A DNA stretch of 64,000 nucleotides from assembly GCA_016180435.1 (NCBI GenBank), contig JACPBG010000001.1, forward strand, positions 216,006 to 280,005, given 5' to 3'. Numbering within the stretch: the stretch's first letter is position 1; each line of letters starts with the position of its first letter. This stretch comes from Candidatus Sungiibacteriota bacterium. Lineage in GTDB: Bacteria; Patescibacteriota; Minisyncoccia; Sungbacterales; HO2-52-23. Shown here in pieces: positions 2,279 through 53,704 of this stretch. Position numbers and translations under genes: made by a program. The notes below the pieces were generated by a model that was given only the letters and a program-made list of their open reading frames with translations, ran no database searches and was not told the DNA's origin.

Positions 2279-3649
2279 ATGCCTCAAATCTCCACCCAAA
2301 ATCCTATTGAGCTTCGCATGCCGCCCCAAAACGTAGAGGCGGAAATGTCGGCTTTGGGATCGCTTATGCTTGACCGCGACGCAATTTTTAAAGTCGCGGA
2401 TTTTTTAAAGCCGCATGATTTTTATAAATCCGCACACCGCGAAATTTACGAGGCGATGCTCGACATTTTCAATCACCGCGAGCCGATTGACGTTTTATCG
2501 GTTACGGCGCGGCTTCGTGAAAAAGGAAAATTGGAGGAAGTTGGGGGATCCGCCTATATCACGAGTTTAGTGAATGTGGTTCCCACCGCCACCCACGTGG
2601 CGCATTACGCTTCAATTGTAAGAAAGAAGCGCCTACTCCGCGATTTAATTGAGGCATCCAGCCATATTGCACAGCTCGGGTACAAGGAGGCGGAGGATGT
2701 TGAACAATTGATCGATGAGGCGGAACAGAAAATATTCGGCATATCGCGCGACTCTCTGCGCCAGGAATTTTTTCTGATAAAAGATGCACTGGAAGAGGCC
2801 TGGGAACGCATTGAAAAAATCCATAACAGCCGCGACGCCCTGCGCGGAGTTACCACGGGCTTTAAAGAACTTGATTCAATCCTGGGGGGCTTGCAAAAAT
2901 CGGACTTGGTCGTGCTGGCTTCGCGCCCGAGTTTAGGAAAAACATCGCTGGCTCTGGATATTTCACGCAATGCCGCGCGAGCCAAACACGCGGTCGGCGT
3001 ATTTAGCTTAGAAATGTCCAAAGAACAGCTGGTGGACCGCTTAATCGCCAGCGAGGCCGCAGTAGACCTTTGGCGCCTGCGCACCGGACATTTAAATCAG
3101 CACGGCGATGGAAATGATTTCTCACGATTGCAAAGCGCTTTATCCACTCTATCGGAACTTCCCCTGTATCTGGACGATACGCCATCCCCCACCGTAATGG
3201 AGCTTCGCGCCAAAGCCAGGCGGCTGCAATCCGAAAAAAAACTTGAACTGGTGGTAATTGATTACCTTCAGCTAATTAAAGGTTATGGAAGCCCGGAGTC
3301 GCGAGTGCAGGAGGTATCGGAAATTTCTCGCTCCCTCAAGGCCATGGCCAAAGAGTTAAATGTGCCGGTGCTTGCTCTTTCCCAGTTATCGCGCGGAGTT
3401 GAAATGAGGCCCTCGGCCATTCCCAAACTTTCGGATTTACGCGAAAGTGGAAGCATTGAGCAGGATGCGGACGTGGTCATGTTTATTTACCGCGAAGATA
3501 AAGTCAAAGAAAACAGCGAACGTAAAAACATCGCCGAAATCCGCGTGGAAAAACACAGGAATGGCCCCACCGGCAAAATTGAACTGTATTTCCACGAAGA
3601 AACCGCCTCATTCCGCTCTCTTGAAAAACATATGGAGGAACTTATATAA
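2279..3649 (+). CDS. dnaB: Replicative DNA helicase DnaB
   Basis: 456 aa; DnaB N-terminal domain (NVEAEMSALGSLMLD), Walker A GxxxxGKT (SRPSLGKTS), C-terminal RecA-like motifs (DYLQLI, ESGSIEQDADVV). Confidence 0.93.
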   Translation: MPQISTQNPIELRMPPQNVEAEMSALGSLMLDRDAIFKVADFLKPHDFYKSAHREIYEAMLDIFNHREPIDVLSVTARLREKGKLEEVGGSAYITSLVNVVPTATHVAHYASIVRKKRLLRDLIEASSHIAQLGYKEAEDVEQLIDEAEQKIFGISRDSLRQEFFLIKDALEEAWERIEKIHNSRDALRGVTTGFKELDSILGGLQKSDLVVLASRPSLGKTSLALDISRNAARAKHAVGVFSLEMSKEQLVDRLIASEAAVDLWRLRTGHLNQHGDGNDFSRLQSALSTLSELPLYLDDTPSPTVMELRAKARRLQSEKKLELVVIDYLQLIKGYGSPESRVQEVSEISRSLKAMAKELNVPVLALSQLSRGVEMRPSAIPKLSDLRESGSIEQDADVVMFIYREDKVKENSERKNIAEIRVEKHRNGPTGKIELYFHEETASFRSLEKHMEELI

Positions 3650-3650
3650 A

Positions 3651-3797
3651 ATTATTCTAATTGTTCTAATTAACCTAATTGTTCTAATCAATGACCATAA
3701 AAAATGTCTAATGACCAAAACTATTTTAGATATTTAGACATTCGCAAAATTGGGATTTAATTAGGTAAATTAGAATAATTAGGTTAATTAGAATAAT
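3651..3797. repeat. AT-rich palindromic intergenic element E1 built from TTCTAAT / ATTAGAA heptamer arrays
   Basis: Left half attattctaattgttctaattaacctaattgttctaat; right half aattaggtaaattagaataattaggttaattagaataatt is its inverted counterpart; near-identical copy at 5158-5299. Confidence 0.8.
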
Positions 3798-3806
3798 TTT
3801 TATTTC

Positions 3807-4433
3807 TTGTACCCAGCGCCTATTCAAAAATTAATTGACCTGTTCACCAAATTTCCCGGCATTGGTCCCCGACAAGCCACTCGCTTTGTTTTTTTTATGC
3901 TGAAAAATCGTGCCCTTATACCCGATTTGCGGCAGGGATTGGCGGATTTGGATAGAAAAATCGCTTTTTGCCCGCTATGCTATCGGGCGCTTGAACAAAA
4001 TGGCGAAAAAGGCGCGTACTGTATGCTATGCCGCGACACCAAACGGAATAGCCGACAAATCGCCGTGGTGGAAAAAGAAGCGGATTTGCAAAATTTAGAA
4101 AAAACCGGATCATATTCCGGCCTTTATCATGTCTTAAGCGGACTCATTGCGCCGCTTGATCCAAATTCTCCAAAGGGTTTGCATTTAAAAGAATTGCACG
4201 AGCGGGTCAATAATCTACTGGAAAAAGAGAGGAAATGTGAGATTATTTTGGCAACCGGAACCACAACCGAAGGCGACATGACCGCGCTTTATATTGAACG
4301 AATCCTAGCGCCTTTGAAAAACAAATTTCCGGAACTTAAAATCTCGCGCCTAGGCCGAGGACTCTCACTCGGCTCCGAACTTGAATATGCGGATGAAGTA
4401 ACCCTGAAAAACGCCTTAACGAACAGGAAATGA
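3807..4433 (+). CDS. recR: Recombination protein RecR
   Basis: 208 aa; HhH N-terminus (FPGIGPRQATR), C4 zinc finger CPLC...CMLC, Toprim region. Confidence 0.9.
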   Translation: MYPAPIQKLIDLFTKFPGIGPRQATRFVFFMLKNRALIPDLRQGLADLDRKIAFCPLCYRALEQNGEKGAYCMLCRDTKRNSRQIAVVEKEADLQNLEKTGSYSGLYHVLSGLIAPLDPNSPKGLHLKELHERVNNLLEKERKCEIILATGTTTEGDMTALYIERILAPLKNKFPELKISRLGRGLSLGSELEYADEVTLKNALTNRK

Positions 4434-4482: not shown

Positions 4483-5157
4483 CTATCCGTACACCGGGGA
4501 CTCGCGGTAAATACAGTACTCGCAATTTTGATGGGCTTTGGGAATCGGGCCGGTAACGATTTCGCGGACTCTTTTTAAAACCGAGATGCCACGCGATGGA
4601 GAAACATCCATTTTGATAAGTTCGGTCTTAAAATCCGCCGCACCCATGCCGTATGACGTTGGCCAGAAAAATAATAAATATCCGTATTCTGCCGGAGGCA
4701 TTTTATTTTCGCGGAAAAGCAAAGCATATAAATCAAGCTGGGTGCGGTAATGTTCATGCGTATCCTCTTTGGTCGGATAACCGCGGGTTTTGAAATCAAA
4801 CGGCACAAACTTTCCGTCAGGCGCAATTAACAAATCGTCAATCGCGCCGCGAAGCACAATATCAAGGTCCGGAAATTTTGCCCCAAGACCCCCGCGGCCA
4901 AAATCTACTTCACGCCATTTATTAAATTCGGCCAAATTTTCATTATAAAGCCGGCCATCCGCTTTTCCATCAATCTCCGGAGGCAATTCGCCGCGTTTCC
5001 GATATTCGTCAAAATATTTTTTGAAAACATTATCCATTCCGTCCGGAAGCGACGGATAGGCGCCGCGCGGGCGCTTTTTATTTTCATTCATCTGCAGCCA
5101 AAGACAGCGCGGACATTCCAATAAATAACTTGTACCGGATGGAGAAACTTTAATCAC
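4483..5157 (-). CDS. Cas4/RecB-family PD-(D/E)xK nuclease with putative Fe-S cysteines (stand-alone)
   Basis: Motifs IDDLLIAPDGKFVPFDFK (D..D/ExK), QLDLYALL (QxxxY), Cys pairs CPRC (N-term) and CEYC (C-term). Start uncertain: track start at 5199 is TTG inside repeat E2; GTG at 5157 or ATG at 5091 are alternatives. Confidence 0.55.
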   Translation of the reverse strand: MIKVSPSGTSYLLECPRCLWLQMNENKKRPRGAYPSLPDGMDNVFKKYFDEYRKRGELPPEIDGKADGRLYNENLAEFNKWREVDFGRGGLGAKFPDLDIVLRGAIDDLLIAPDGKFVPFDFKTRGYPTKEDTHEHYRTQLDLYALLFRENKMPPAEYGYLLFFWPTSYGMGAADFKTELIKMDVSPSRGISVLKRVREIVTGPIPKAHQNCEYCIYRESPVYG

Positions 5158-5299
5158 AATTATTCTAATTACTCTAATTGCTCTAATTATTCTAATCAAA
5201 TCCTAATGACAAAATGTCTAAAAACTTTAGGAAATAGGCATTCAAATCATTGAGGTTTTTTAGGTTAATTAGGTCAATTAGAATAATTAGGTTAATTTA
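5158..5299. repeat. AT-rich palindromic intergenic element E2 (second copy of E1 family)
   Basis: aattattctaattactctaattgctctaattattctaatc ... aatgtctaa ... ttaggttaattaggtcaattagaataattaggttaatt; collinear with E1 at 3651-3797. Confidence 0.8.
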
Positions 5300-11701: not shown

Positions 11702-12748
11702 TCAAAGAGAAATTACTTCCTCCCACGGCAGGTCCGGCTTGCCAAAATGACCATAAGATGCGGTGCTTAAATAAATTGGCCGGCGCAAATTAAGACGCTC
11801 AATTATGGCTTGCGGCCGAAAATCGAATTTTTCGGAAACTAGTTTTCCTAAATCCTTACCGTCGCTGGTTTCGGCATGCACCATCAAGGGCTCGGCGCGG
11901 CCAATAGCATATGCAACCGAGACCATACAATCCTTGGCAAGTCCGTTTGCCACGATATTTTTAGCCGCATATCGCGCCATATAGGCGGCCGAGCGATCCA
12001 CTTTGGTAGGGTCCTTGCCGGAAAACGCGCCGCCGCCATGCGGAATAAGCCCGCCATACGTATCCACCATGATTTTTCTGCCGGTAAGTCCGGTGTCTGC
12101 CGTAAATCCGCCGATTACAAATTTTCCGGTAGGATTGACCAAGACCTCGATTCCCGATAAATCACCAGTAACCGGATGGATCAATTTGCGCAGCAGTATT
12201 TCTTTAATTTCCGGCTGGGAGATGCTGTCCGAGTGCTGACATGATATCAATACAGCGCTCAATTTCCCATCATGCATCGTTACCTGCGATTTGCCGTCAG
12301 GGCCAAGCCATGAACATTCAGAATCGTTTCTGCGCAAATCCTCAAGGCCTTTGGTAAATTTATGCGCCAGCGAAACAGCCCGCGGAAGAAATTCCGGGGT
12401 TTCGGCAGTAGCGTATCCATACATAATACCCTGATCCCCGGCGCCTCCGGTGTCCACTCCCTGCGCGATATCCGGGGACTGACGGATGATATTCGTAACA
12501 ACTTTCAAATTATCCGCATATCCGATGTCGCGGTATATTTTTTGCGCAATTTCTCCGGCCTCAATCTCCCCCCGGGAAGTTACTTCTCCTCCCACGACCA
12601 AAAGTCCGTGGGAGCCAAAACTCTCCACAGCCACGCGGGAATGCGTATCTTTTTTAAGATATTCGTCCAAAATCGCGTCCGAGATTTGGTCGCATATTTT
12701 ATCCGGATGTCCGGAGGTTACGCTTTCTACGGTGTATGTGGTACGCAT
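11702..12748 (-). CDS. metK: S-adenosylmethionine synthetase (methionine adenosyltransferase)
   Basis: 348 aa; N-terminal ESVTSGHPDKICDQISDAILD, GGGAFSGKDPTKVDRSAAYMARYAAKN signature. Confidence 0.9.
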   Translation of the reverse strand: MRTTYTVESVTSGHPDKICDQISDAILDEYLKKDTHSRVAVESFGSHGLLVVGGEVTSRGEIEAGEIAQKIYRDIGYADNLKVVTNIIRQSPDIAQGVDTGGAGDQGIMYGYATAETPEFLPRAVSLAHKFTKGLEDLRRNDSECSWLGPDGKSQVTMHDGKLSAVLISCQHSDSISQPEIKEILLRKLIHPVTGDLSGIEVLVNPTGKFVIGGFTADTGLTGRKIMVDTYGGLIPHGGGAFSGKDPTKVDRSAAYMARYAAKNIVANGLAKDCMVSVAYAIGRAEPLMVHAETSDGKDLGKLVSEKFDFRPQAIIERLNLRRPIYLSTASYGHFGKPDLPWEEVISL

Positions 12749-12759
12749 AAATGTAAATT

Positions 12760-12915
12760 AAAACTCACAAAGCACAGAAACCAAGACATAAACAAGCACT
12801 AAAATTCAAAATTCACCTAATTTCTAAGGCCTGAATTTTTAATTTCTTTATTTGGTATTTTATTAGAAATTAGACAATTAGGTAATTAGAAATTTATCTT
12901 AATGGGTTTTGTGCA
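12760..12915. repeat. Repeated ~150-bp leader/element E4 upstream of metK (homologous to 39476-39760 minus its inserted small element)
   Basis: acagaaacca..actaaaattcaaaattcacctaatttctaaggcctga..taatttctttatttggtattttattagaaattagacaattaggtaattagaaatt..gggttttgtgc shared almost verbatim with the region upstream of neuB. Confidence 0.75.
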
Positions 12916-12966: not shown

Positions 12967-13150
12967 GAAAAAAGCTATCGCTCCCCTTACAGGGCTGGCA
13001 TTGGCACTATTCCGCTTTTAACGGAACTTTGCTGGCGGGTCATAGGGCCAGATCCCTCACCGCACTCTGGATAAAACATAAATTTTGATTATCTATATAA
13101 TACATGCAACTATACAAAAAACAAGAAAGTTTTCCACAAACATCCGACCA
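12966..13150 (-). ncRNA. Candidate small non-coding transcript (unclassified)
   Basis: ~180-nt GC-richer stretch between two minus-strand terminators, preceded by AT-rich promoter-like sequence at ~13085-13130, ending in the terminator at 12936-12966; contains several helices (gggccagatccc, ccgcttttaacgg); no match to SRP/6S/RNase P/tmRNA motifs that I could recognise. Confidence 0.2.
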
Positions 13151-15077: not shown

Positions 15078-15626
15078 TTATTTGGCAATAATTGCTTCAA
15101 TAATATCATCGCCGCCGTATTGATTCTGCCCAATCCCATCCGGGCCGAATGATCCGACCACCGCTGCCCAACGCTCGCCCGCGCCCGGATCAATATCATA
15201 ATCCGGATCAAAAAAATAAGCATTGTTCCAGGGGTCATTCATAATCGCCGAAATATAAGGGCCGCTCCAATTATTATAGTTTCCGTCGGTGGCAATGAGT
15301 CCGGCCGCAGGCGCGCCTAAATCCCATACCTCATTTCCGCTGGCTCCGGTTCCTACCTGATCCACCGGATAATGCCCGGGCCACTCATTGGCGTCGTTTT
15401 CCAAAAGCACGATGGCTTTGCGGATTTGATTAACATCTCCGAGCGCTTTGACCAGCCGCGCCGATTCTTTGGCGCGATACAATTGGAACATGATAATTGA
15501 CGCCAAAATGCCGATTACGGCCATAACCATCAGCATTTCAATCAGCGTGAACCCCGCCCTAAATTTGAGGCTAAACCTCGATAGTCCACCGTTGAGGTTT
15601 AGCCTCGCAGAGAAAAATCGTCTCAT
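15078..15626 (-). CDS. Type IV pilin / pseudopilin (prepilin-type N-terminal cleavage/methylation domain)
   Basis: RAGFTLIEMLMVMAVIGILASII = G|FTLIE prepilin motif followed by hydrophobic helix. Confidence 0.8.
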   Translation of the reverse strand: MRRFFSARLNLNGGLSRFSLKFRAGFTLIEMLMVMAVIGILASIIMFQLYRAKESARLVKALGDVNQIRKAIVLLENDANEWPGHYPVDQVGTGASGNEVWDLGAPAAGLIATDGNYNNWSGPYISAIMNDPWNNAYFFDPDYDIDPGAGERWAAVVGSFGPDGIGQNQYGGDDIIEAIIAK

Positions 15627-26020: not shown

Positions 26021-26183
26021 AGAAATTCTTTATGCAAAAAGCTCAGCATAGCATATAATTTTATACCATATAAAGCAAGATCCCCTTTTTAAGGGGGGCC
26101 TTGCCGGACAAATGGAGTTTTCAGAAGTCACTCCTGAAAACACTCACATGTTCTATTTGTAGCAAATTGCCAATAAAAAGTCA

Positions 26184-26284
26184 ACCCCGTTAGAGATTTG
26201 GTTATCCACATTACACATGCGCGTCAAAAAACACCTAAAACGTATTTCATCAGTACTACAAGAATCTTACATCTCTAACGGGGT
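26184..26284. mobile_element. Small TIR-bounded element (MITE-like), copy a: ACCCCGTTAGAGAT ... ATCTCTAACGGGGT
   Basis: 14-bp perfect terminal inverted repeats flanking ~73 bp non-coding DNA; same TIR family at 37057, 39537, 52234, 52257. Confidence 0.65.
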
Positions 26285-26305
26285 CAATACCCTTTATCCA
26301 CAGAT

Positions 26306-28132: not shown

Positions 28133-29513
28133 CCGCATCAAAATCACGCTTCTTATTTTAGGGGACTTTCTAACACTCTGGGGAACCCTAATTTTGATTT
28201 TGTTTCTCCGCTATCACGCCGATCAAGATTTCGATCTACAAAAAATGTTTCAAATCCATGTAGCGCCTTTTACTCTCGTATTTGCCGCCTGGCTCGTACT
28301 TTTCGGCGCTTTTGGATTATACGACATACGGACGCTCGGCCTCGTTACCATACGGGATGCGCGGAGGCTTTTATTAAGAATGACGGAAGCAATGGCGTTT
28401 AATACGGCCTCGGCCATTATCATTTTTTATTTGATTCCGGCATTTGAAATCGAACCGCGCCGCAATTTATTCTTGGTGGTTTTGGGATCATTATTCTTCA
28501 TCTTTACATGGCGCTGCCTTATTAATCTTTTCATAACCAAAGCCAAGCCCTTACCGATCGCATTTTTTGGCATTAACAAAGAAGTGGTGGAGCTTGCGGA
28601 TTGGCTCCTGAAAAATCCGCAGCTCGGAAGAAAGCCGGCCGCATTCATATCCGCAAACAGCGAGGACACCCTGCGTCCCCTGCCCCTTCCCGTGTTCACC
28701 CACACCCAAGACATGCAGCATCTAGCGCGCGATTTGGCGCTGGATGCCATAATCATTACCCGCGAGATCAAAGAGAATAAAACACTGACGCGCGCTCTTT
28801 TTCAAATGATACCGCTGGGCGTAGGCATTACGGAATTTACGGCATTCCACGAAATGCTCACCGGAAAAATCCCTTTATCACTCATAGGGGAAGTGTGGTT
28901 TTTGGAAAATCTGGCTGGCAGCCAAAAAGACATATATGAATTTTTCAAACGCGTGCTTGATATCGGACTTGCCATACTTCTGGGCATTCCATTTTTAGTC
29001 CTTTTACCTTTAACTGCAATTTTTATCAAAATCAATTCGCCGGGTAGAATATTCTTCCGGCAAAAACGGGTGGGTAAAAATGGAAAGGAGTTTTTTCTGA
29101 TAAAATTCCGTTCTATGGTGCAGACTGCCGAAAAACTTGGCGGATTTAAAAATGAATCCGAAGACCGCCGCCATACCGGCGTAGGAAAATTTTTAAGAAA
29201 AATATATATTGACGAATTGCCACAAATAATAAATGTTTTGCGCGGTGAAATGTCATTTATCGGACCGCGGCCGGAGCGGCCCGAATATGTCCGCGAACTA
29301 AAAGAAAAAATTCCGTTTTACGAAATGCGACTTTTAGTTCCGCCCGGCATCACCGGCTGGGCGCAAATTAATATGGAGAATGACGCATCCGTGGAGGATG
29401 CGCCGGAAAAAATGCAGTATGATCTTTATTACATCAAAAATCGTTCATTCCTGCTGGATATTCTAGTGGCGCTCCGCACAATTTTTATCATTCTCCGCCG
29501 CCCTGGAAGATAG
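28122..29513 (+). CDS. Polyprenyl-phosphate sugar phosphotransferase (WbaP/PssY-like initiating transferase)
   Basis: 463 aa; N-terminal TM helices, C-terminal Bac_transf domain (KFRSM, DELPQIINVLRGEMSFIGPRPERP, PGITGWAQIN). Confidence 0.85.
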   Translation: MATNRIKITLLILGDFLTLWGTLILILFLRYHADQDFDLQKMFQIHVAPFTLVFAAWLVLFGAFGLYDIRTLGLVTIRDARRLLLRMTEAMAFNTASAIIIFYLIPAFEIEPRRNLFLVVLGSLFFIFTWRCLINLFITKAKPLPIAFFGINKEVVELADWLLKNPQLGRKPAAFISANSEDTLRPLPLPVFTHTQDMQHLARDLALDAIIITREIKENKTLTRALFQMIPLGVGITEFTAFHEMLTGKIPLSLIGEVWFLENLAGSQKDIYEFFKRVLDIGLAILLGIPFLVLLPLTAIFIKINSPGRIFFRQKRVGKNGKEFFLIKFRSMVQTAEKLGGFKNESEDRRHTGVGKFLRKIYIDELPQIINVLRGEMSFIGPRPERPEYVRELKEKIPFYEMRLLVPPGITGWAQINMENDASVEDAPEKMQYDLYYIKNRSFLLDILVALRTIFIILRRPGR

Positions 29514-29576: not shown

Positions 29577-29981
29577 ATGGCTTTTAGTATGCAGCGCCTT
29601 GTCCCGGCAAATGAAACTAAAAAGGGGAAGCGCACATGGAATTGGAACATGCCGGACGGAAAACAAATAACGATTTATCAGAGATATCGGGACGAGGAAT
29701 TCGGAAATCACTTCCATAAAGGAGGGGACCCTTCAAAAAATCCGGAAAGGTTTCTCCTTCTTAACGGGATAGTTTATTTTTGGCTCGAAGATAAAAACGG
29801 CCACAGATATACTATGGTACTAGACGCAACCGATGGACCGGTGGAAATCATGATACGACCGTATATTCTCCACGGCGCCCGGGCGCTGGCAGATTGTTGC
29901 TTTATCGAATACCGGCAGAGCAAATTTGATCCGGCACATACAGATACATATCCGGAAGAAATCTTTCGGGAAACACATTAA
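29577..29981 (+). CDS. Cupin-fold protein, WxcM/FdtA-like (sugar ketoisomerase-like)
   Basis: 134 aa; GNHFHKGG metal-binding-like motif, similar to cupins at 44349-44810 and 57212-57604. Confidence 0.5.
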   Translation: MAFSMQRLVPANETKKGKRTWNWNMPDGKQITIYQRYRDEEFGNHFHKGGDPSKNPERFLLLNGIVYFWLEDKNGHRYTMVLDATDGPVEIMIRPYILHGARALADCCFIEYRQSKFDPAHTDTYPEEIFRETH

Positions 29982-30106: not shown

Positions 30107-30502
30107 TTACAATGGTCTACAAAAAACGGCAAAATTTGCCCTTCCTGCGGCAGAAAAAATGCAAAAAAGAACGGATATTCACGCGGCAAGCAGCAATATA
30201 AATGCTTAAAGTGCAATAAGAAGTTTTCCGGTCAAAGACGACGCGGTATTTTACAAAGTATTCTTTGGCAGCAATACGCCCATGATTATTGCACAGTAGA
30301 TCAACTGACCCGCAAGTATCACCGAAGCGAAAAGTGGATCCGATCTCAACTGGATGCATACCGATTCCCGGAACATAAGATGGCGCCGCGTCCGGTCGTG
30401 ATCGTGGCTGACGCCATGTTCTTTGGAAGACACTGGGGAGTGGTAGTAATGCGCGCTCCGCACAATTTTCATCATTCTCCGCCGCCCTGGAAGATAGGAT
30501 AA
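30107..30502 (+). pseudogene. Zinc-ribbon transposase remnant (IS1/IS1595-type N-terminus; truncated, no ATG start)
   Basis: Frame encodes KNGKICPSCGRKNAKKNGYSRGKQQYKCLKCNKKFS (CxxC-N17-CxxC ribbon) then ...PRPVVIVADAMFFGRHWGVVV resembling the start of a DDE domain; ORF ends inside the duplicated 45-bp segment. Confidence 0.45.
30453..30497. repeat. 45-bp direct duplicate (44/45 identical) of the 3' end of the sugar-transferase gene (copy 1 at 29469-29513)
   Basis: gcgctccgcacaattttcatcattctccgccgccctggaagatag vs gcgctccgcacaatttttatcattctccgccgccctggaagatag; encodes ALRTIFIILRRPGR* in both places. Confidence 0.9.
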
Positions 30503-30548
30503 AAACAGGTTATTATCACAAATTGTCATACGGAATATCTGTATTTTT

Positions 30549-30586
30549 TACTCTGATATGTATACGATCGAAATAATATCAGAGTA
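30549..30586. promoter_or_regulatory. 38-bp palindromic site TACTCTGATAT-N16-ATATCAGAGTA (copy A, downstream of PaaX-like gene)
   Basis: tactctgatatgtatacgatcgaaataatatcagagta; second copy at 31284-31321. Confidence 0.6.
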
Positions 30587-30638
30587 AATCTGAATATCCG
30601 CCGCAGAACCATACAGAAAAATAAGATAGATAATACAT

Positions 30639-31232
30639 TTAAATTTCGTGAATGGTCCCGCGCTTATTTACCGAAAAAATATGAACGTGCGGTAGTAACT
30701 TTCTTTCCCGAATTGCATGAATAAAATCCTCGTCTATGGCATTGCCGCGGCTAACCCAAACGCTTTTTTGCAACAATTTAAATTCCATTTCTCGAAGACA
30801 AGCACGAACCCAATCACGAGCCCTGCGCTCTTTTTCGGGGATGTCAAATGCAACAATTATCAAACCGCTCCCCGTCGGAGGATCAAGTGAAACGGAAAAT
30901 TTTGAAAAATTATTCTGGGAGCGATCACGGATATACCTTAATCGTTCAATGCCACGTTTAGTAATATTCCAAAATGACGACTTTCCTTTTTCTTTTTTTA
31001 CCACCAATCCCTCATGTTGCAAATAATTGAGGGTGTTGTAAAATTGACGATGTTTCCTATAGATATCGGCCCAATCAGTTTTGAACTGGCGCGGACCTTG
31101 AGATAAGAATCTCCGATAATCGCGACGTGCCTCAGATTTAGACATAAAAAAGGATTTAAATAAATCAACGGTCACTTCCGCCTCGAATTGAAGTAATTCT
31201 AGAATTTTTTCGACAAACGTTTCGCGCTTCAT
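30639..31232 (-). CDS. PaaX-family-like transcriptional regulator: N-terminal winged HTH + C-terminal Cas2-like domain
   Basis: 197 aa; C-terminal LIIVAFDIPEKERRARDWVRACLREMEFKLLQKSVWV parallels Cas2 N-terminal beta-alpha-beta (lVlVsYDIsdd.rRrkvaklL..yGqRVQySVF) and the PaaX middle domain. Confidence 0.55.
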   Translation of the reverse strand: MKRETFVEKILELLQFEAEVTVDLFKSFFMSKSEARRDYRRFLSQGPRQFKTDWADIYRKHRQFYNTLNYLQHEGLVVKKEKGKSSFWNITKRGIERLRYIRDRSQNNFSKFSVSLDPPTGSGLIIVAFDIPEKERRARDWVRACLREMEFKLLQKSVWVSRGNAIDEDFIHAIRERKLLPHVHIFSVNKRGTIHEI

Positions 31233-31283
31233 TTAAATATATTCAGTGGCCAAAAACCGCGTTCCAGCCCGCAAAAATTTATA

Positions 31284-31321
31284 TACTCTGATATTTATAC
31301 GATCGTATTTATATCAGAGTA
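31284..31321. promoter_or_regulatory. 38-bp near-perfect palindrome (copy B) ~50 bp upstream of PaaX-like gene; putative operator
   Basis: tactctgatatttatacgatcgtatttatatcagagta (34/38 self-complementary). Confidence 0.6.
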
Positions 31322-31382
31322 AAAAATATTATTACTGGTCTGGTACTACTTGGGGGGAAGATAAAAAAACAATTATTAATAC

Positions 31383-35659: not shown

Positions 35660-37048
35660 CTATACCGCACTCTTAAATATTTTCAACCTCGACAAAACCC
35701 TTTGCCTGATATCCTTAAAAACCGCACGATCATATTCGTCAATTGAGAAAAACTCTTTCCAGGAAAATTTCCATTGGGGAAGCGCTTTTTTAATGGCCAG
35801 CGCATAAGCCGGCGTTGTCAAAATTCCCAAAAGAAGCATTTCGGATGCCGCGCCCCATAATCCGAAGAAATAAGTAAAAACAGCATTAAGAAGCACAACC
35901 GCAACGGTGCGCGAAACCGTAACCGCAAAAAGTTTCTGTTGGGCACGCAGGGCATAAAAAACCGGCACCGCAACAGTCCTGAATCCCGAAACGGGCAAAC
36001 CAAGAAGTAGGAGATAAAAATACGGGAGTGCCTCCCAATATTTTGGAATGACGAGTGCGACAAAGACCGGAGCGCCCGCGGCCGCAACAATGAATAATAT
36101 AAAATTCGCGGCAGTCGCATATTTGGTGGCGCGATTTAGCTGACGGGATAAACGTTCCGGGTCATCAGCTGATCGCGGCAAAACCGGGGTCAAAATTTCC
36201 CGCAACGGAAAAAGCGATTTTACATGAGCCGTAAGCCCTTGCGCCAGCGCAATCAGCGCCACCCCCTCTATTCCCACAAAGGCCTTTACGAGAAACGGCC
36301 GGATATTCTGCGCAAAATTATTGATAAAATCGCTCGCAATCGCCCATTTGCCGTGCCGCAAGAAAAGATCAAAAATCGCGCTGCGGCATTCCGCCCAAGA
36401 CGGAATAATAAAAAGCGGATCTCGGCGATATCCTAAACTTATCAAAACCGGAACAAGCATAGAGGCAAAACCCGCCCAAAGCGCCTCCTGCGCGCCGAAT
36501 ACCGCAAAAAAATAAAAAAGCGCGATTGAAACAATCCGGGCCATGCTTGAAATCAACCGATAGGCGTTTCCCCACCCAAAATCAAGAAATATCTGAAATT
36601 TAAGCTTATAGGCGGTTTCAAACGGAACCGCAATAAAAAAAAGCGAGACCACCGCCAGATGCGGAATTCCTTCGCTCTCGCCCAGCCAGGATGCGATAAA
36701 TCGCGAACCGAATAAAAAAAGCAAAAAAAATACCGCGCTCACCAACGCCACAAACCAAATATAAAAACTGAAAACCGCCTGGGCCCTGCGGCGATCACTC
36801 GCAAGATACGATGCAACGTCGCTTACCACCACATTTTCCAAACCGGCTAAAAAAAATCCGGCCATAAACTCATAGGCCGCAAGCGCCAGACGATAAACTC
36901 CGTATTCAAATAAGGAAAGAAGACGAAGAAGAGAGATAGCGGTCAGCGCATCAATAAATTTCCAGACCACAGTTCCCGCACCGGAAATGGCAATGCCGCG
37001 TATCACAACCTTCCCCATGTTTTCTTTTTCCTCGATATTATTATTCAT
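35660..37048 (-). CDS. Polysaccharide biosynthesis flippase (Wzx/MOP superfamily)
   Basis: 462 aa, ~12 TM helices, Polysacc_synt-like N-terminus. Confidence 0.6.
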   Translation of the reverse strand: MNNNIEEKENMGKVVIRGIAISGAGTVVWKFIDALTAISLLRLLSLFEYGVYRLALAAYEFMAGFFLAGLENVVVSDVASYLASDRRRAQAVFSFYIWFVALVSAVFFLLFLFGSRFIASWLGESEGIPHLAVVSLFFIAVPFETAYKLKFQIFLDFGWGNAYRLISSMARIVSIALFYFFAVFGAQEALWAGFASMLVPVLISLGYRRDPLFIIPSWAECRSAIFDLFLRHGKWAIASDFINNFAQNIRPFLVKAFVGIEGVALIALAQGLTAHVKSLFPLREILTPVLPRSADDPERLSRQLNRATKYATAANFILFIVAAAGAPVFVALVIPKYWEALPYFYLLLLGLPVSGFRTVAVPVFYALRAQQKLFAVTVSRTVAVVLLNAVFTYFFGLWGAASEMLLLGILTTPAYALAIKKALPQWKFSWKEFFSIDEYDRAVFKDIRQRVLSRLKIFKSAV

Positions 37049-37056
37049 CCCGTTAG

Positions 37057-37146
37057 AAGTATAATTCTTAAAAAAACACGCCTCTTAAAAATACAGGTGT
37101 TATCATTTGATCCTGTAGAAAGTATAGACCCAAACTTCTAACGGGA
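37057..37146. mobile_element. Small TIR-bounded element copy b: TCCCGTTAGAAG ... CTTCTAACGGGA
   Basis: 12-bp terminal inverted repeats of the CCCGTTAGAA family flanking ~66 bp; fills the neuC-flippase intergenic region. Confidence 0.6.
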
Positions 37147-38424
37147 TTAATAAAACCTTTTCTGGATTGAAGGATTGACCCGCGCCAGAATTTCGGCGAT
37201 ACGCGCGCCCGCCTTGCCATCCCCAAACATGGCACTTGACGGATACCGCCCATGCCGCAACTGTTTTTCGATTGCCTCTTTTATTTTTTTTTCTTCCGGC
37301 AAAACTTCAATGACATTTGCTCCACACTCTCGGCCCGTTTGCCTACTGCCGACCAGCACAGATGGCGTTCCGAAAAACGCTCCCTCGCGCAAAAAACTGG
37401 AAGAATTTCCTATGGCCGCGGAGGCATGCGCCAAAACCCGGTTAAAATCCTCCGGACTAAAATTTTTATAAAATGCGCGGTCCGGACGGCTGTTACGGAC
37501 GCGATACTCGCGAATGGCGGAAGATATTCCGTCTGATCCGGCATCCAGATTTGACACCACAAACATGGCCGGCATCTTGATTTTATCTATCGCGGCGCAT
37601 AGTGCCCGGGCATATTCGTAATTCATATTATATTCGGTGGTAACCGGATGATACAACACGAGTAAAAAGGGCTTATGCAAATCAAAATTGTCCGATCCTC
37701 CCCTTCCGTATCGCCTGAAAAAATCATTATCCAGGCCAAGATCTATACTCTTGATAAAATCAATTCCGGAAAAACCCGGCATAAAAACAAAATCCGGATT
37801 TTCTCCCATGCGTATCAGGCGCTGGCGGCTTTTTTCGGTCACGGGAAAATGCATGTGGGCAAGCTTGGTAATCGCATGACGCACGCTCTCGTCAATGGTT
37901 CCCGAAACGTCTCCGCCTTCCACATGGGCAATCGGAATATTCAAAAATGCCGCGGCCATCGCAATAGGCAAACTTTCAAATCGATCAGCGTAAATCAATA
38001 CGACATCCGGCTTTAATTTCTCAAAAAGCTTTGGAATTCCTAAAAGCCCAAGTCCGGCGCTCTTTACCATAACGCGCGTATTCCCTCCTTCCAAAAATAG
38101 CGGAAGTCGCGCGTGTATGGGAAATCCCGCGCCCATAAGCAATTTGGGCAGATATTCCAATTTTTCAACTTCACCTCTTTTTCCTAAAATTTTTGTGGTG
38201 CGGGCCTTTATATACCAAGAAAAAGCTTTCAAAAATGAAACCGGCTCGCCATGAAATAAATACCAAAACAAGTGGTCAAAATAAAAATTGGTTACGGCGA
38301 TAACCTGCAATTCCAACTGCGGATGTTTCTGAATCGCCTCCATAACCGGTTTAACTCTGCCATAAATCGCGCGGTCATTCACCACCACGCAAATTTTTCT
38401 TTTTTTCATTTGATGTGTTTCCAT
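37147..38424 (-). CDS. neuC: UDP-N-acetylglucosamine 2-epimerase (hydrolysing), NeuC-like
   Basis: 425 aa; Epimerase_2 family; HVEGG motif (IAHVEGGDVSGTIDE). Confidence 0.75.
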   Translation of the reverse strand: METHQMKKRKICVVVNDRAIYGRVKPVMEAIQKHPQLELQVIAVTNFYFDHLFWYLFHGEPVSFLKAFSWYIKARTTKILGKRGEVEKLEYLPKLLMGAGFPIHARLPLFLEGGNTRVMVKSAGLGLLGIPKLFEKLKPDVVLIYADRFESLPIAMAAAFLNIPIAHVEGGDVSGTIDESVRHAITKLAHMHFPVTEKSRQRLIRMGENPDFVFMPGFSGIDFIKSIDLGLDNDFFRRYGRGGSDNFDLHKPFLLVLYHPVTTEYNMNYEYARALCAAIDKIKMPAMFVVSNLDAGSDGISSAIREYRVRNSRPDRAFYKNFSPEDFNRVLAHASAAIGNSSSFLREGAFFGTPSVLVGSRQTGRECGANVIEVLPEEKKIKEAIEKQLRHGRYPSSAMFGDGKAGARIAEILARVNPSIQKRFY

Positions 38425-39475: not shown

Positions 39476-39760
39476 CTAAAACTCACAAAACACAGAAACC
39501 AGAACTAAAATTCAAAATTCACCTAATCTCTAATTTACCCCGTTAGAAATAAACAAATATAGTAGCATCTGCAACTCGTTTTTATCGGTAAAAATAGATA
39601 ATTTCCGCACTAAAAACATCTTCTGTTTCTTTCTAACGGGGTGAACCTAATAAAATTTCTAAGGCCTAAGTTCTTAATTTCTTTATTGGACATTTTATTA
39701 GAAATTAGACAATTAGGTAATTAGAAATTGAGGCCGCTATTTGGGTTTTGTGCGTTTATT
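39476..39760. repeat. Copy E5 of the ~150-bp leader element (see 12760-12915) upstream of neuB, interrupted by a small TIR element
   Basis: acagaaaccagaactaaaattcaaaattcacctaat...[insert 39537-39642]...tttctaaggcctaagttcttaatttctttattggacattttattagaaattagacaattaggtaattagaaatt...gggttttgtgcg. Confidence 0.75.
39537..39642. mobile_element. Small TIR-bounded element copy c: ACCCCGTTAGAAA ... TTTCTAACGGGGT
   Basis: 13-bp perfect terminal inverted repeats; inserted within the repeated leader element relative to the uninterrupted copy upstream of metK. Confidence 0.7.
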
Positions 39761-52198: not shown

Positions 52199-52233
52199 AC
52201 GATTATGCGTTAATATAGGCGGGATAGCTATAA

Positions 52234-52440
52234 ACCCCGTTAGAAACGGGCGCTTCGCCCCGTTAGAGATTTATAGAGTATTGAACCCATTTAAGAAAAA
52301 AATCATATTTTCACTTATATAGTCGGGGTCTTGTCGCGCCATATCTCTAACGGGGTGAGCGACCTGCCAATGAAAGCATTATACTCCCATCAGCTATTTC
52401 TATCTCTACCGCGACAGAGTCGGTGGCGTTCTAACGGGGT
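52234..52440. mobile_element. Nested pair of small TIR elements (outer ACCCCGTTAGAAA...GTTCTAACGGGGT; inner CCCCGTTAGAGAT...ATCTCTAACGGGG at 52257-52354)
   Basis: Inner element sits 10 bp inside the left end of the outer element; inner TIR variant (GTTAGAGAT) is identical to copy a at 26184. Confidence 0.65.
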
Positions 52441-52498
52441 AAAACAAATAAGACGAAATCAATGTTTTATCAGTAGTAACTAAATCTGCTGAAATTTT

Positions 52499-53539
52499 AT
52501 GCGACTATTGATTACCGGTGGATCAGGGTTTATGGGATCAAACTTCATCCGCTACCTTTACAACGCCTACAAAACGGCGCGTATTTGGAATTTGGATCTT
52601 TTAACTTACGCCGGCAATCCGGAAAATCTTGCTGATATTGAAGCAACTGAATCAAAAATGCCGGATGATGAACGCCGCTATACTTTTATCAAAGGCGACG
52701 TGGCAGACCGAGAACTGATCCAGCGCCTGTTTGAAGAAAATGAATTTGATACGGTATTCAATTTCGCCGCTGAAAGCCATGTGGATCGCTCCATCGTGAA
52801 CTCGGTTAATTTCATACGCACCAATATCCAGGGAACCCATACGCTTTTGGATGCGGCCCGGAATTTTAATACTCCTCATTTCATTCACGTATCAACGGAC
52901 GAGGTCTACGGAGACCGCCTGGAGGGATCGGCAGATGAGAAGACCCTGCTTAAACCCTCCAATCCATATTCGGCGTCCAAGGCCGGAGCGGACTTCCTGG
53001 CCCAGGCATATATCAGAACCTATAATCTTCCCATAACCATAATACGCTCATGCAATAATTTCGGGCCCTATCAATATCCGGAAAAATTAATACCCCTTAC
53101 CATTACCAACCTTCTGGAGGGAAAAAAGGTTCCGGTCCATGGCAGCGGCCTGCATGTCCGAAGCTGGATTTATGTAAAGGATTTCTGCGAGGCCCTGGAT
53201 GCCATCTGGCAAAAAGCCCATACGCGAGAAATTTACAACATAGGCGGAGTTGAGAAAAAAAATATGGATATAGTGGCGCATATCGCATCCTGCCTGCAAA
53301 AAGACGCCCACGCCTGGATAGAACATGTAAACGACCGCCCGGGACAGGACGTCCGCTACTCAATAACGCACGCCAAACTAAAATCCCACATAGGATGGGA
53401 GCCAAAATACGAATACAAAACCGCGTTTGCGGATACTATAAACTGGTATCTTGCCAACCCTGAATGGTGGAAAAAAATACGCGATACCAAAGAATTTACG
53501 GATCATCTGGATCTTCAATCCAAAGGAATGCGATTTTGA
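52499..53539 (+). CDS. rfbB: dTDP-glucose 4,6-dehydratase
   Basis: 346 aa; TGGSGFMGSN, YxxxK (YSASK), characteristic RmlB regions. Confidence 0.9.
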   Translation: MRLLITGGSGFMGSNFIRYLYNAYKTARIWNLDLLTYAGNPENLADIEATESKMPDDERRYTFIKGDVADRELIQRLFEENEFDTVFNFAAESHVDRSIVNSVNFIRTNIQGTHTLLDAARNFNTPHFIHVSTDEVYGDRLEGSADEKTLLKPSNPYSASKAGADFLAQAYIRTYNLPITIIRSCNNFGPYQYPEKLIPLTITNLLEGKKVPVHGSGLHVRSWIYVKDFCEALDAIWQKAHTREIYNIGGVEKKNMDIVAHIASCLQKDAHAWIEHVNDRPGQDVRYSITHAKLKSHIGWEPKYEYKTAFADTINWYLANPEWWKKIRDTKEFTDHLDLQSKGMRF

Positions 53540-53547
53540 TAAACCAT

Positions 53548-53704
53548 TTAATAACCCCATATTCTGCTGCAATTGCAATATTTCGGCTGCGGCGCCCAAC
53601 GGCTCAAACTCGCCGTATCAACCGATACGCCTCGTTTTCCGCCGGGGCGTCTCGCTCGAAATATTGCAATTTCGCAACGAAAGAGGGTTATTAAACGGTT
53701 TCTA
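53548..53704. mobile_element. 157-bp element with ~38-bp imperfect TIRs (TTAATAACCC...GCAATTGCAATATTTCG / CGAAATATTGCAATTTCGC...GGGTTATTAA)
   Basis: Fills exactly the space between convergent rfbB and GT2 genes; long inverted arms with ~70-nt GC-rich interior; alternatively a giant bidirectional terminator-like hairpin. Confidence 0.5.

Follow-up and report, generated by a model that had tools for sequence, protein, structure and literature searches.

What are the short, hairpin-like units that recur between the genes of a polysaccharide cluster in a Candidatus Sungbacteria MAG (Patescibacteria/CPR)? A first-pass annotation of a 64-kb window of this genome (the whole stretch of DNA analyzed here, 64,000 nucleotides) had listed five such units bounded by terminal inverted repeats (TIRs), likened them to MITEs, and kept as fallbacks a structured RNA family or a substrate of site-specific recombination. 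The five units are gene-less members of a widespread, cross-phylum family of miniature mobile DNA elements, and within the window they are best explained as fixed passengers in the intergenic gaps of the cluster. As to what moves the family, we favor, with a probability of roughly 0.6, the reading in which a GIY-YIG nuclease mobilizes a family of miniature transposons and the five units are MITE-like, non-autonomous members of that family.

Five units in a polysaccharide-biosynthesis cluster

The sequence ACCCCGTTAGA is found with at most one mismatch at 10 sites of the window, while dinucleotide-preserving shuffles contain 0.54 on average and never more than 3. Paired up, these sites delimit five units of 98-205 bp with inverted repeats at their ends, as first proposed (Table 1; the core of a unit is counted from the initial C of CCCC through the final G of GGGG). 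The start originally given for Element 2, 37057, was off by 10 nt. The perfect terminal repeats measure 12-14 bp in all five units when the flanking A/T is counted, the length the annotation had reported. All five are indeed intergenic and lie within a 26-kb cluster carrying genes for glycosyltransferases, a sugar transferase, a Wzy-like polymerase, a flippase, NeuB/NeuC/CMP-transferase-like proteins and several epimerase/dehydratases. None contains an ORF, and no further copy was found in the 7.3 kb upstream of the window.

Table 1. Coordinates of the elements, their neighbors and the loci discussed in the text (window positions unless a locus is named)
Feature	Position	Strand	Description
Element 1	26185-26283	no strand	99 bp, non-coding, ends CCCCGTTAGAGAT / ATCTCTAACGGGG
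Element 2	37048-37146	no strand	99 bp, variant ends TCCCGTTAGAAGT / ACTTCTAACGGGA (TCCC...GGGA)
Element 3	39538-39641	no strand	104 bp, 13-bp perfect repeat plus imperfect extension
Element 4a (outer)	52235-52439	no strand	205 bp including the nested copy; two-hairpin subfamily
Element 4b (inner)	52258-52355	no strand	98 bp, nested in 4a
Flippase-like gene	35660-37048	minus	ATG at the edge of Element 2
UDP-GlcNAc 2-epimerase-like gene	37147-38424	minus	Stop codon abuts Element 2
Leader repeat split by Element 3	39477-39729	no strand	Upstream of a neuB-like gene
Intact leader paralogue	12759-12894	no strand	Empty-site comparator for Element 3
Prepilin-leader insertions	L220 6426-6494, 7142-7474, 9911-10011, 10699-10989	reverse	
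Prepilin-leader insertions	L026 2942-3105, 6121-6200; L075 6334-7021; L131; L218; L233 2653-2676		
Repeat-bracketed tRNA loci	L045 4971-5060; L053 431-539; L077 1140-1248; L101 5057-5166		

The annotation had proposed comparing flanks for target-site duplications. This comparison gave perfect 4-bp matches for Element 1 (TCAA at 26181-26184 and 26284-26287) and for Element 4a (TAAA at 52231-52234 and 52440-52443), which lies between divergent genes. Element 2 fills the whole stop-to-ATG gap between two minus-strand genes, the ATG overlapping it by 1 nt, and its flanks (TTCA at 37044-37047, TTAA at 37147-37150) agree at three of four positions. No duplication was seen around Element 3 (TTTA at 39534-39537, TGAA at 39642-39645) or Element 4b (TTCG at 52254-52257, TGAG at 52356-52359).

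That the units have no conserved interior is true among the window copies, whose interiors are mutually unrelated (local alignment scores of 7-12 against shuffle means of 8-10); a second copy of any of them was found neither in the window nor in all the sequences that we fetched. The claim fails for Element 4a, whose interior, unlike the unrelated interiors elsewhere, is conserved and common to other phyla. This element aligns end to end with three uninterrupted homologues from other phyla (L031, L115 and L134; 85.6% identity over 90 nt for L031), relative to which Element 4b is an extra block, and the two copies are thus nested as described. The annotation had also read one copy as interrupting a repeated leader. 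Element 3 does split the neuB-side copy of an AT-rich leader repeat of ~135 bp that is intact in its paralogue, the junction being untidy. The presence/absence comparison that had been suggested for related loci does reveal empty sites, the leader paralogue and the uninterrupted homologues of Element 4a among them. The intact leader copy itself sits between a SAM riboswitch (12972-13077, minus strand) and the ATG of metK (11702-12748).

Nesting and interruption had been taken to imply recent mobility, and for the source genome this found no support: in Logan assemblies from its population, Element 2 and the nested pair are present in unaltered form, and the window copies show no presence/absence polymorphism. 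Logan contigs from many samples (L001-L014, L256, L257) end at 39558, 40494 and 52249, in or near elements. We do not use these breaks as evidence, as they fall off the repeat boundaries and an alternative allele was not recovered.

Short inverted repeats that flank 70-180 bp between the genes of a surface-polysaccharide cluster, in one case between divergent genes, recall invertible promoter switches (invertons), which a site-specific recombinase would flip to control glycan genes; the capsule switches of Bacteroides are a comparable arrangement. We consider this reading extremely unlikely. No window ORF contains a recombinase or transposase domain, and Elements 2 and 4, where Logan contigs run across them, show a single orientation at the assembly level. 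Identical ends enclose ORFs, tRNAs and almost empty hairpins at hundreds of unrelated loci, and neither 4-bp target duplications nor empty sites would be expected of invertons. The recombination-substrate fallback of the annotation is likewise not supported, on the first and last of these grounds.

The window also holds several other repeats. Arrays of AATTAGNNN with a 9-bp period, in inverted orientation (3648-3807 and 5149-5297), bracket recR-like and PD-(D/E)XK nuclease genes. A 45-bp direct repeat (98% identical; 29469-29513 and 30453-30497) duplicates the 3' end of the sugar-transferase gene and brackets an insert of ~940 bp whose ORF (29577-29981) has no family match, and which looks like a small integrated element. 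Inverted repeats of 48 nt (88% complementary; 30542-31328) enclose an ORF (30639-31232) whose 197-aa product has a Cas2/PaaX_M-like domain, forming another small repeat-bounded unit. Finally, a 57-nt imperfect inverted repeat (74% complementary; 53541-53701) lies between convergent genes just downstream of a dehydratase gene (52499-53539).

The family beyond the window

Across genomes the TIR of the family measures 14-17 bp, (TTNA)CCCCGTTAGA(RAT), and the end consensus is identical in short elements, at both ends of the GIY-YIG units described below and in the window copies. A scan for exact CCCCGTTAGA-N60-90-TCTAACGGGG in one genome per species yielded at least 120 loci from at least 10 phylum-level groups, and a metagenome scan with exact ends again at least 120; since both scans used exact 10-nt ends, fixed size windows and the matches listed, these counts are lower bounds and the proportions are not unbiased. 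The lineages listed comprise many Patescibacteria, Omnitrophota, Planctomycetota, Thermodesulfobacteriota/'Deltaproteobacteria', Nitrospirota and Gammaproteobacteria, together with Bdellovibrionales, Spirochaetia, Cloacimonadota, KSB1, WOR-3 and others. Two scans of viral contigs gave 0 and 1 matches, which makes carriage by phages unlikely. In the MAG DX4.bin27 (L019; L023 2166-2259 and 4941-5034; L057 1389-1482) the element sits inside a larger repeat with its own TIR (AATCCCGCG..CGCGGGATT), and these copies are therefore not independent insertions.

The MITE-like behavior suggested for the window copies is borne out at the level of the family, by 4-bp target duplications, occupied/empty pairs, nested and tandem insertions, and a coding partner with the same ends. 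Identical 4-bp flanks surround 63 of 128 short elements, against a mean of 10.7 (8%) and a maximum of 19 in shuffles. They follow the pattern T-N-N-A, G being weakly preferred on the preceding side and C/T on the following one. Clean 4-bp duplications are seen in an occupied/empty pair of paralogous pilin genes of L220 (TGAA), in a 68-bp copy nested within another copy (CTCG; L218/L220), and in the occupied/empty pair L219 and L164. A comparison of flanks across all loci further shows that tandem copy number varies at the duplicated tetranucleotide, and the spacer between tandem copies is always exactly 4 nt.

Not every junction is so simple. The occupied/empty junctions are unclean in L191 versus L022, in L026 and at position 5597 of L220. 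In L191, a GIY-YIG unit (2660-2938) and a short element (2987-3074) lie 45 nt apart in a mazG-like ORF, which a Geobacteraceae MAG carries in intact form (L022 850-900), and neither junction is a clean 4-bp duplication. One flank class, TTCA..TAAA (TTTA..TGAA on the other strand), recurs in 26 of 82 GIY-YIG units and 11 of 127 short elements, Element 3 included, and fits neither a simple duplication nor a perfect extension of the repeat. Elements of the two-hairpin subfamily carry TAAA/TGAA on both sides in one orientation by 12 to 1, and the inner flank of several tandem insertions differs from the target. Together these three patterns hint that the four flanking bases may in part move along with the element, for example by ligation of overhangs. 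A separate idea, that stop codons are targeted, was rejected: of 101 T[AG]A-flanked ends, 19 close an ORF of 80 codons or more, as against 19 of 202 in control frames, an enrichment of just 2-fold.

What lies between the ends varies widely. The smallest interiors make near-empty hairpins, 24-30 bp between and including the ends; others are unrelated sequences of ~80 nt, a two-hairpin module common to several phyla, or a nuclease gene. At four loci (Table 1) a tRNA gene sits exactly between the terminal repeats (Thr-CGT, Val-GAC and twice Ala-CGC), and these may be mobile tRNA minigenes. With such different contents between the same ends, the family looks cargo-agnostic, only its ends being constrained.

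Could the closing stem instead be the hallmark of a structured RNA family, or of DNA hairpins that serve the host, for instance in processing, termination or mRNA stabilization? All copies fold better than shuffles (z of -3.1 to -6.8), the two-hairpin subfamily keeps an internal hairpin across phyla in which the stem sequence changes and the loop GCATTAAAC is conserved, and the stem-bracketed tRNAs recall processing stems. The fold signal is, however, the terminal repeat itself: interiors are unstructured in centroid folds, the closing stem is the one robust feature of the single-strand folds, as in Element 1, and this stem is invariant and free of covariation. Copies are found in either orientation, some within ORFs and in frame, some nested, and some as tandem arrays spaced by 4 nt. 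Target duplications and empty sites, for their part, characterize mobile DNA. Rfam 15 gave no match on the elements searched (those of the window, L026, L031, L034 and L058), its sole match being the SAM riboswitch elsewhere. We therefore judge this reading, the other fallback of the annotation, very improbable.

A GIY-YIG nuclease gene between the same ends

The annotation had recommended looking for a full-length IS with the same TIRs. A coding partner exists, and it is not the one expected: no conventional IS turned up among the pairs scanned, and units of ~280 bp with the same ends enclose a small GIY-YIG gene. The first two were met by chance at two loci. A metagenome scan for CCCCGTTAGA-N250-280-TCTAACGGGG, in which ORFs were scored where the flank was long enough, then gave 124 elements of 270-300 bp among the matches listed, 82 of them (about two thirds) with one intact GIY-YIG ORF. 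The ORF fills the interior, starting at an ATG 14-30 nt inside the left repeat. The right repeat encodes the C-terminus of the product, ..(S)LTG, and the stop is usually a flanking TAA or TGA.

The product, of 83-96 residues and typically ~86 aa, matches the Pfam GIY-YIG family (E=5.7e-14), is closest to UPF0213/YhbQ proteins (1zg2, E=1.5e-8), and forms a single domain without a separate DNA-binding domain. Its AF2 model (pLDDT 93) matches UPF0213 BH0048, the Slx1 nuclease domain (TM 0.6) and the I-TevI catalytic domain. The 79 distinct proteins share 37-99% identity (median 57%) and keep the conserved residues. The median pN/pS over 52 pairs is 0.22, which indicates purifying selection. Clustered at 90% identity, the nuclease family as a whole forms at least 5,790 clusters; its members, most of them exactly 86 aa long, are annotated at source merely as 'putative endonuclease' or 'GIY-YIG nuclease family protein'. 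GIY-YIG genes have been listed among the horizontally transferred genes of Patescibacteria in one report (PMC12455944). In the full-text literature, of which our coverage is incomplete, we found no description of TIR-bounded GIY-YIG minigenes or of the repeat.

Short elements also occur on 44 of 120 contigs picked for a GIY-YIG element. The window has no GIY-YIG gene (best E=0.83 with the GIY-YIG HMM), and its copies, with neither this gene nor a recombinase or transposase beside them, are therefore non-autonomous.

The nuclease could in principle be a passenger, an addiction gene or a homing gene, the short elements then being ordinary MITEs of a conventional IS, for example of the DDE type with 4-bp duplications. 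TIRs with a 4-bp target duplication are typical of DDE transposition, the tRNA genes show that other cargo is carried, and the nuclease gene is absent near the window copies. To our knowledge, moreover, all characterized bacterial MITEs depend on conventional transposases. We nevertheless regard this reading as unlikely. The 313 adjacent end pairs found in 1.5 Mb measure 20-140 or 200-300 bp and none exceeds 300 bp, so that the GIY-YIG unit is the largest member of the family. A search for a long autonomous element by relaxed ends and target duplications, in scans windowed by size, found no transposase-containing pair and gave only composites of short elements. Among the elements scanned, GIY-YIG is the sole protein between these ends, and a C-terminus and stop built into the right repeat and its flank are what is usual for an element's own gene.

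A different role for the nuclease is suggested by insertions in prepilin leaders of other genomes (Table 1). Read through TTCA, the right repeat followed by the left repeat encodes LTG/FTPLE, which mimics the prepilin cleavage site G/FTLIE (the slash marks the cleaved bond). Of 667 ends, 11 abut the N-terminus of a type IV pilin in frame, and in all 11 the reading frame continues without a stop across the insertion, be it one element or up to three in tandem or nested, and G/FT is regenerated, as in the leader MKRRSGFT-PLENSLTG-FTLLEL. These insertions, at the G/FT codons and with TTCA or TTTA as the duplicated target, would thus merely add length to a leader that is cleaved off. In the window itself, the pilin-like gene (15078-15626, minus strand) has its GGGG-TTCA-CG site unoccupied. 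Its leader holds a different 13-nt inverted repeat, GAGGCTAAACCTC/GAGGTTTAGCCTC (15565-15610), unrelated to the family and related to a perfect 24-nt palindrome at 1132-1182.

This resemblance also suits a homing-type element, in which the nuclease would cut a GG/TTYA/CC(CTNATYGAR)-like prepilin site and the element would be copied in by double-strand-break repair, its repeats mimicking the target half-site. The closeness of the repeat junction to the pilin site, the in-frame pilin insertions, and the recreation of a target-like site at each junction, which fits tandem arrays, all speak for it, as does the fact that the closest characterized mobile GIY-YIG enzymes are homing endonucleases. Most insertions, however, are at unrelated TNNA sites without flanking homology, and the nested CTCG insertion and the intergenic duplications fit transposition better than homology-directed copying. 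The 86-aa single-domain protein also lacks the DNA-binding domains of I-TevI-type enzymes. On balance, homing seems improbable to us.

A proposed mode of movement and its relatives

The family inserts at short TNNA sites, usually duplicating 4 bp, and any sequence between two ends would travel along. If it is mobilized by its GIY-YIG nuclease, as we propose, the enzyme would act on the two ends as a pair, recognizing them either in duplex form or extruded into a hairpin or cruciform, and would bind and cut them. It would introduce breaks with a 4-nt stagger both at the edges of the element and in the target, and the host would complete the move by repair or ligation. Gene-less copies, including those of the window, would be moved in trans. 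The recognition step is modeled on Slx1, which cuts branched and stem-loop DNA and would suit a hairpin or cruciform substrate.

Several observations count against this scheme. Identical 4-bp flanks are present in just 17 of the 82 GIY-YIG units. The 86-aa nuclease has no separate DNA-binding domain, and GIY-YIG homing enzymes are described in one account as leaving 2-nt 3' overhangs, not 4-nt staggers (PMC2761285). We also count against it the recurrent TTCA..TAAA flank class, the unclean junctions (the three noted above and that of the leader split by Element 3), the lack of a GIY-YIG gene in the window and the lack of polymorphism in the Logan assemblies.

Among known systems, bacterial MITEs such as Correia/NEMIS of Neisseria and the palindromic elements of Rickettsia (RPE) are likewise small, non-coding, TIR-bounded and flanked by short target duplications, with dispersed intergenic and nested copies. 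Some RPE copies lie in frame inside protein-coding genes, to which the prepilin leaders provide a parallel. The present family differs in sharing one end sequence across many phyla, in its unrelated interiors, some of them tRNA genes, and in having as sole coding partner a GIY-YIG unit of ~280 bp rather than an IS with a DDE transposase. REPIN-RAYT systems similarly combine a small nuclease gene between inverted repeat copies with many gene-less hairpin doublets. Their enzyme is of the Y1/HUH type and their REP palindromes are GTAG-headed and lineage-specific, whereas the family has a GIY-YIG enzyme and a cross-phylum repeat, with ends that are not self-palindromic, no GTAG head and clear 4-bp target duplications.

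With free-standing and intron-encoded GIY-YIG homing endonucleases (T4 Seg, I-TevI) the family shares the catalytic domain, selfish spread and an apparent conserved coding target, the pilin N-terminus. It departs from them in its 86-aa protein devoid of a DNA-binding domain, its TIRs and target duplications, and its many gene-less derivatives. In sequence and fold the nuclease is matched best by YhbQ/UPF0213 and Slx1, but these are host repair enzymes, single-copy and not repeat-bounded.

Integron attC sites also have imperfect inverted repeats, GTTAGA/TCTAAC-like cores and variable middles over 60-140 bp. We rejected this identity as the order of the cores is reversed (RYYYAAC...GTTRRRY in attC, GTTAGA...TCTAAC in the family) and the window has neither an integrase nor a cassette array. 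A lead from the 77-bp inverted repeat of the P. gingivalis capsule locus was dropped as well: in that source (PMC3969353) the motif appears only in an engineered bulge oligonucleotide.

For the Sungbacteria genome, the consequence is that the strange hairpins of the glycan cluster are best read as passengers and not as regulatory switches. For annotation more generally, the family accounts for recurrent contig breaks and spurious small ORFs (..SNGV.., ..LTG..), for odd long prepilin leaders and for repeat-bracketed tRNA genes. A broader proposal, which we advance tentatively and at somewhat less than even odds, is that it represents a new class of prokaryotic DNA transposon, with a minimal Slx1/YhbQ-like GIY-YIG transposase, cargo-agnostic derivatives that include tRNA minigenes, and ends whose shape lets an insertion at prepilin G/FT codons add length to the cleaved leader alone, a 'stealth' use of pilin genes as a safe harbor. 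The prokaryotic transposases known to us are DDE/DEDD, HUH, serine, tyrosine or Cas1 enzymes. If the proposal is true, an 86-residue GIY-YIG protein would add a new transposase class, and at ~280 bp its unit would be the smallest autonomous DNA transposon known, pushing down the minimum size of autonomous mobile DNA, in a family that spans candidate phyla, among them Patescibacteria, where the mechanisms of genome plasticity are poorly known.
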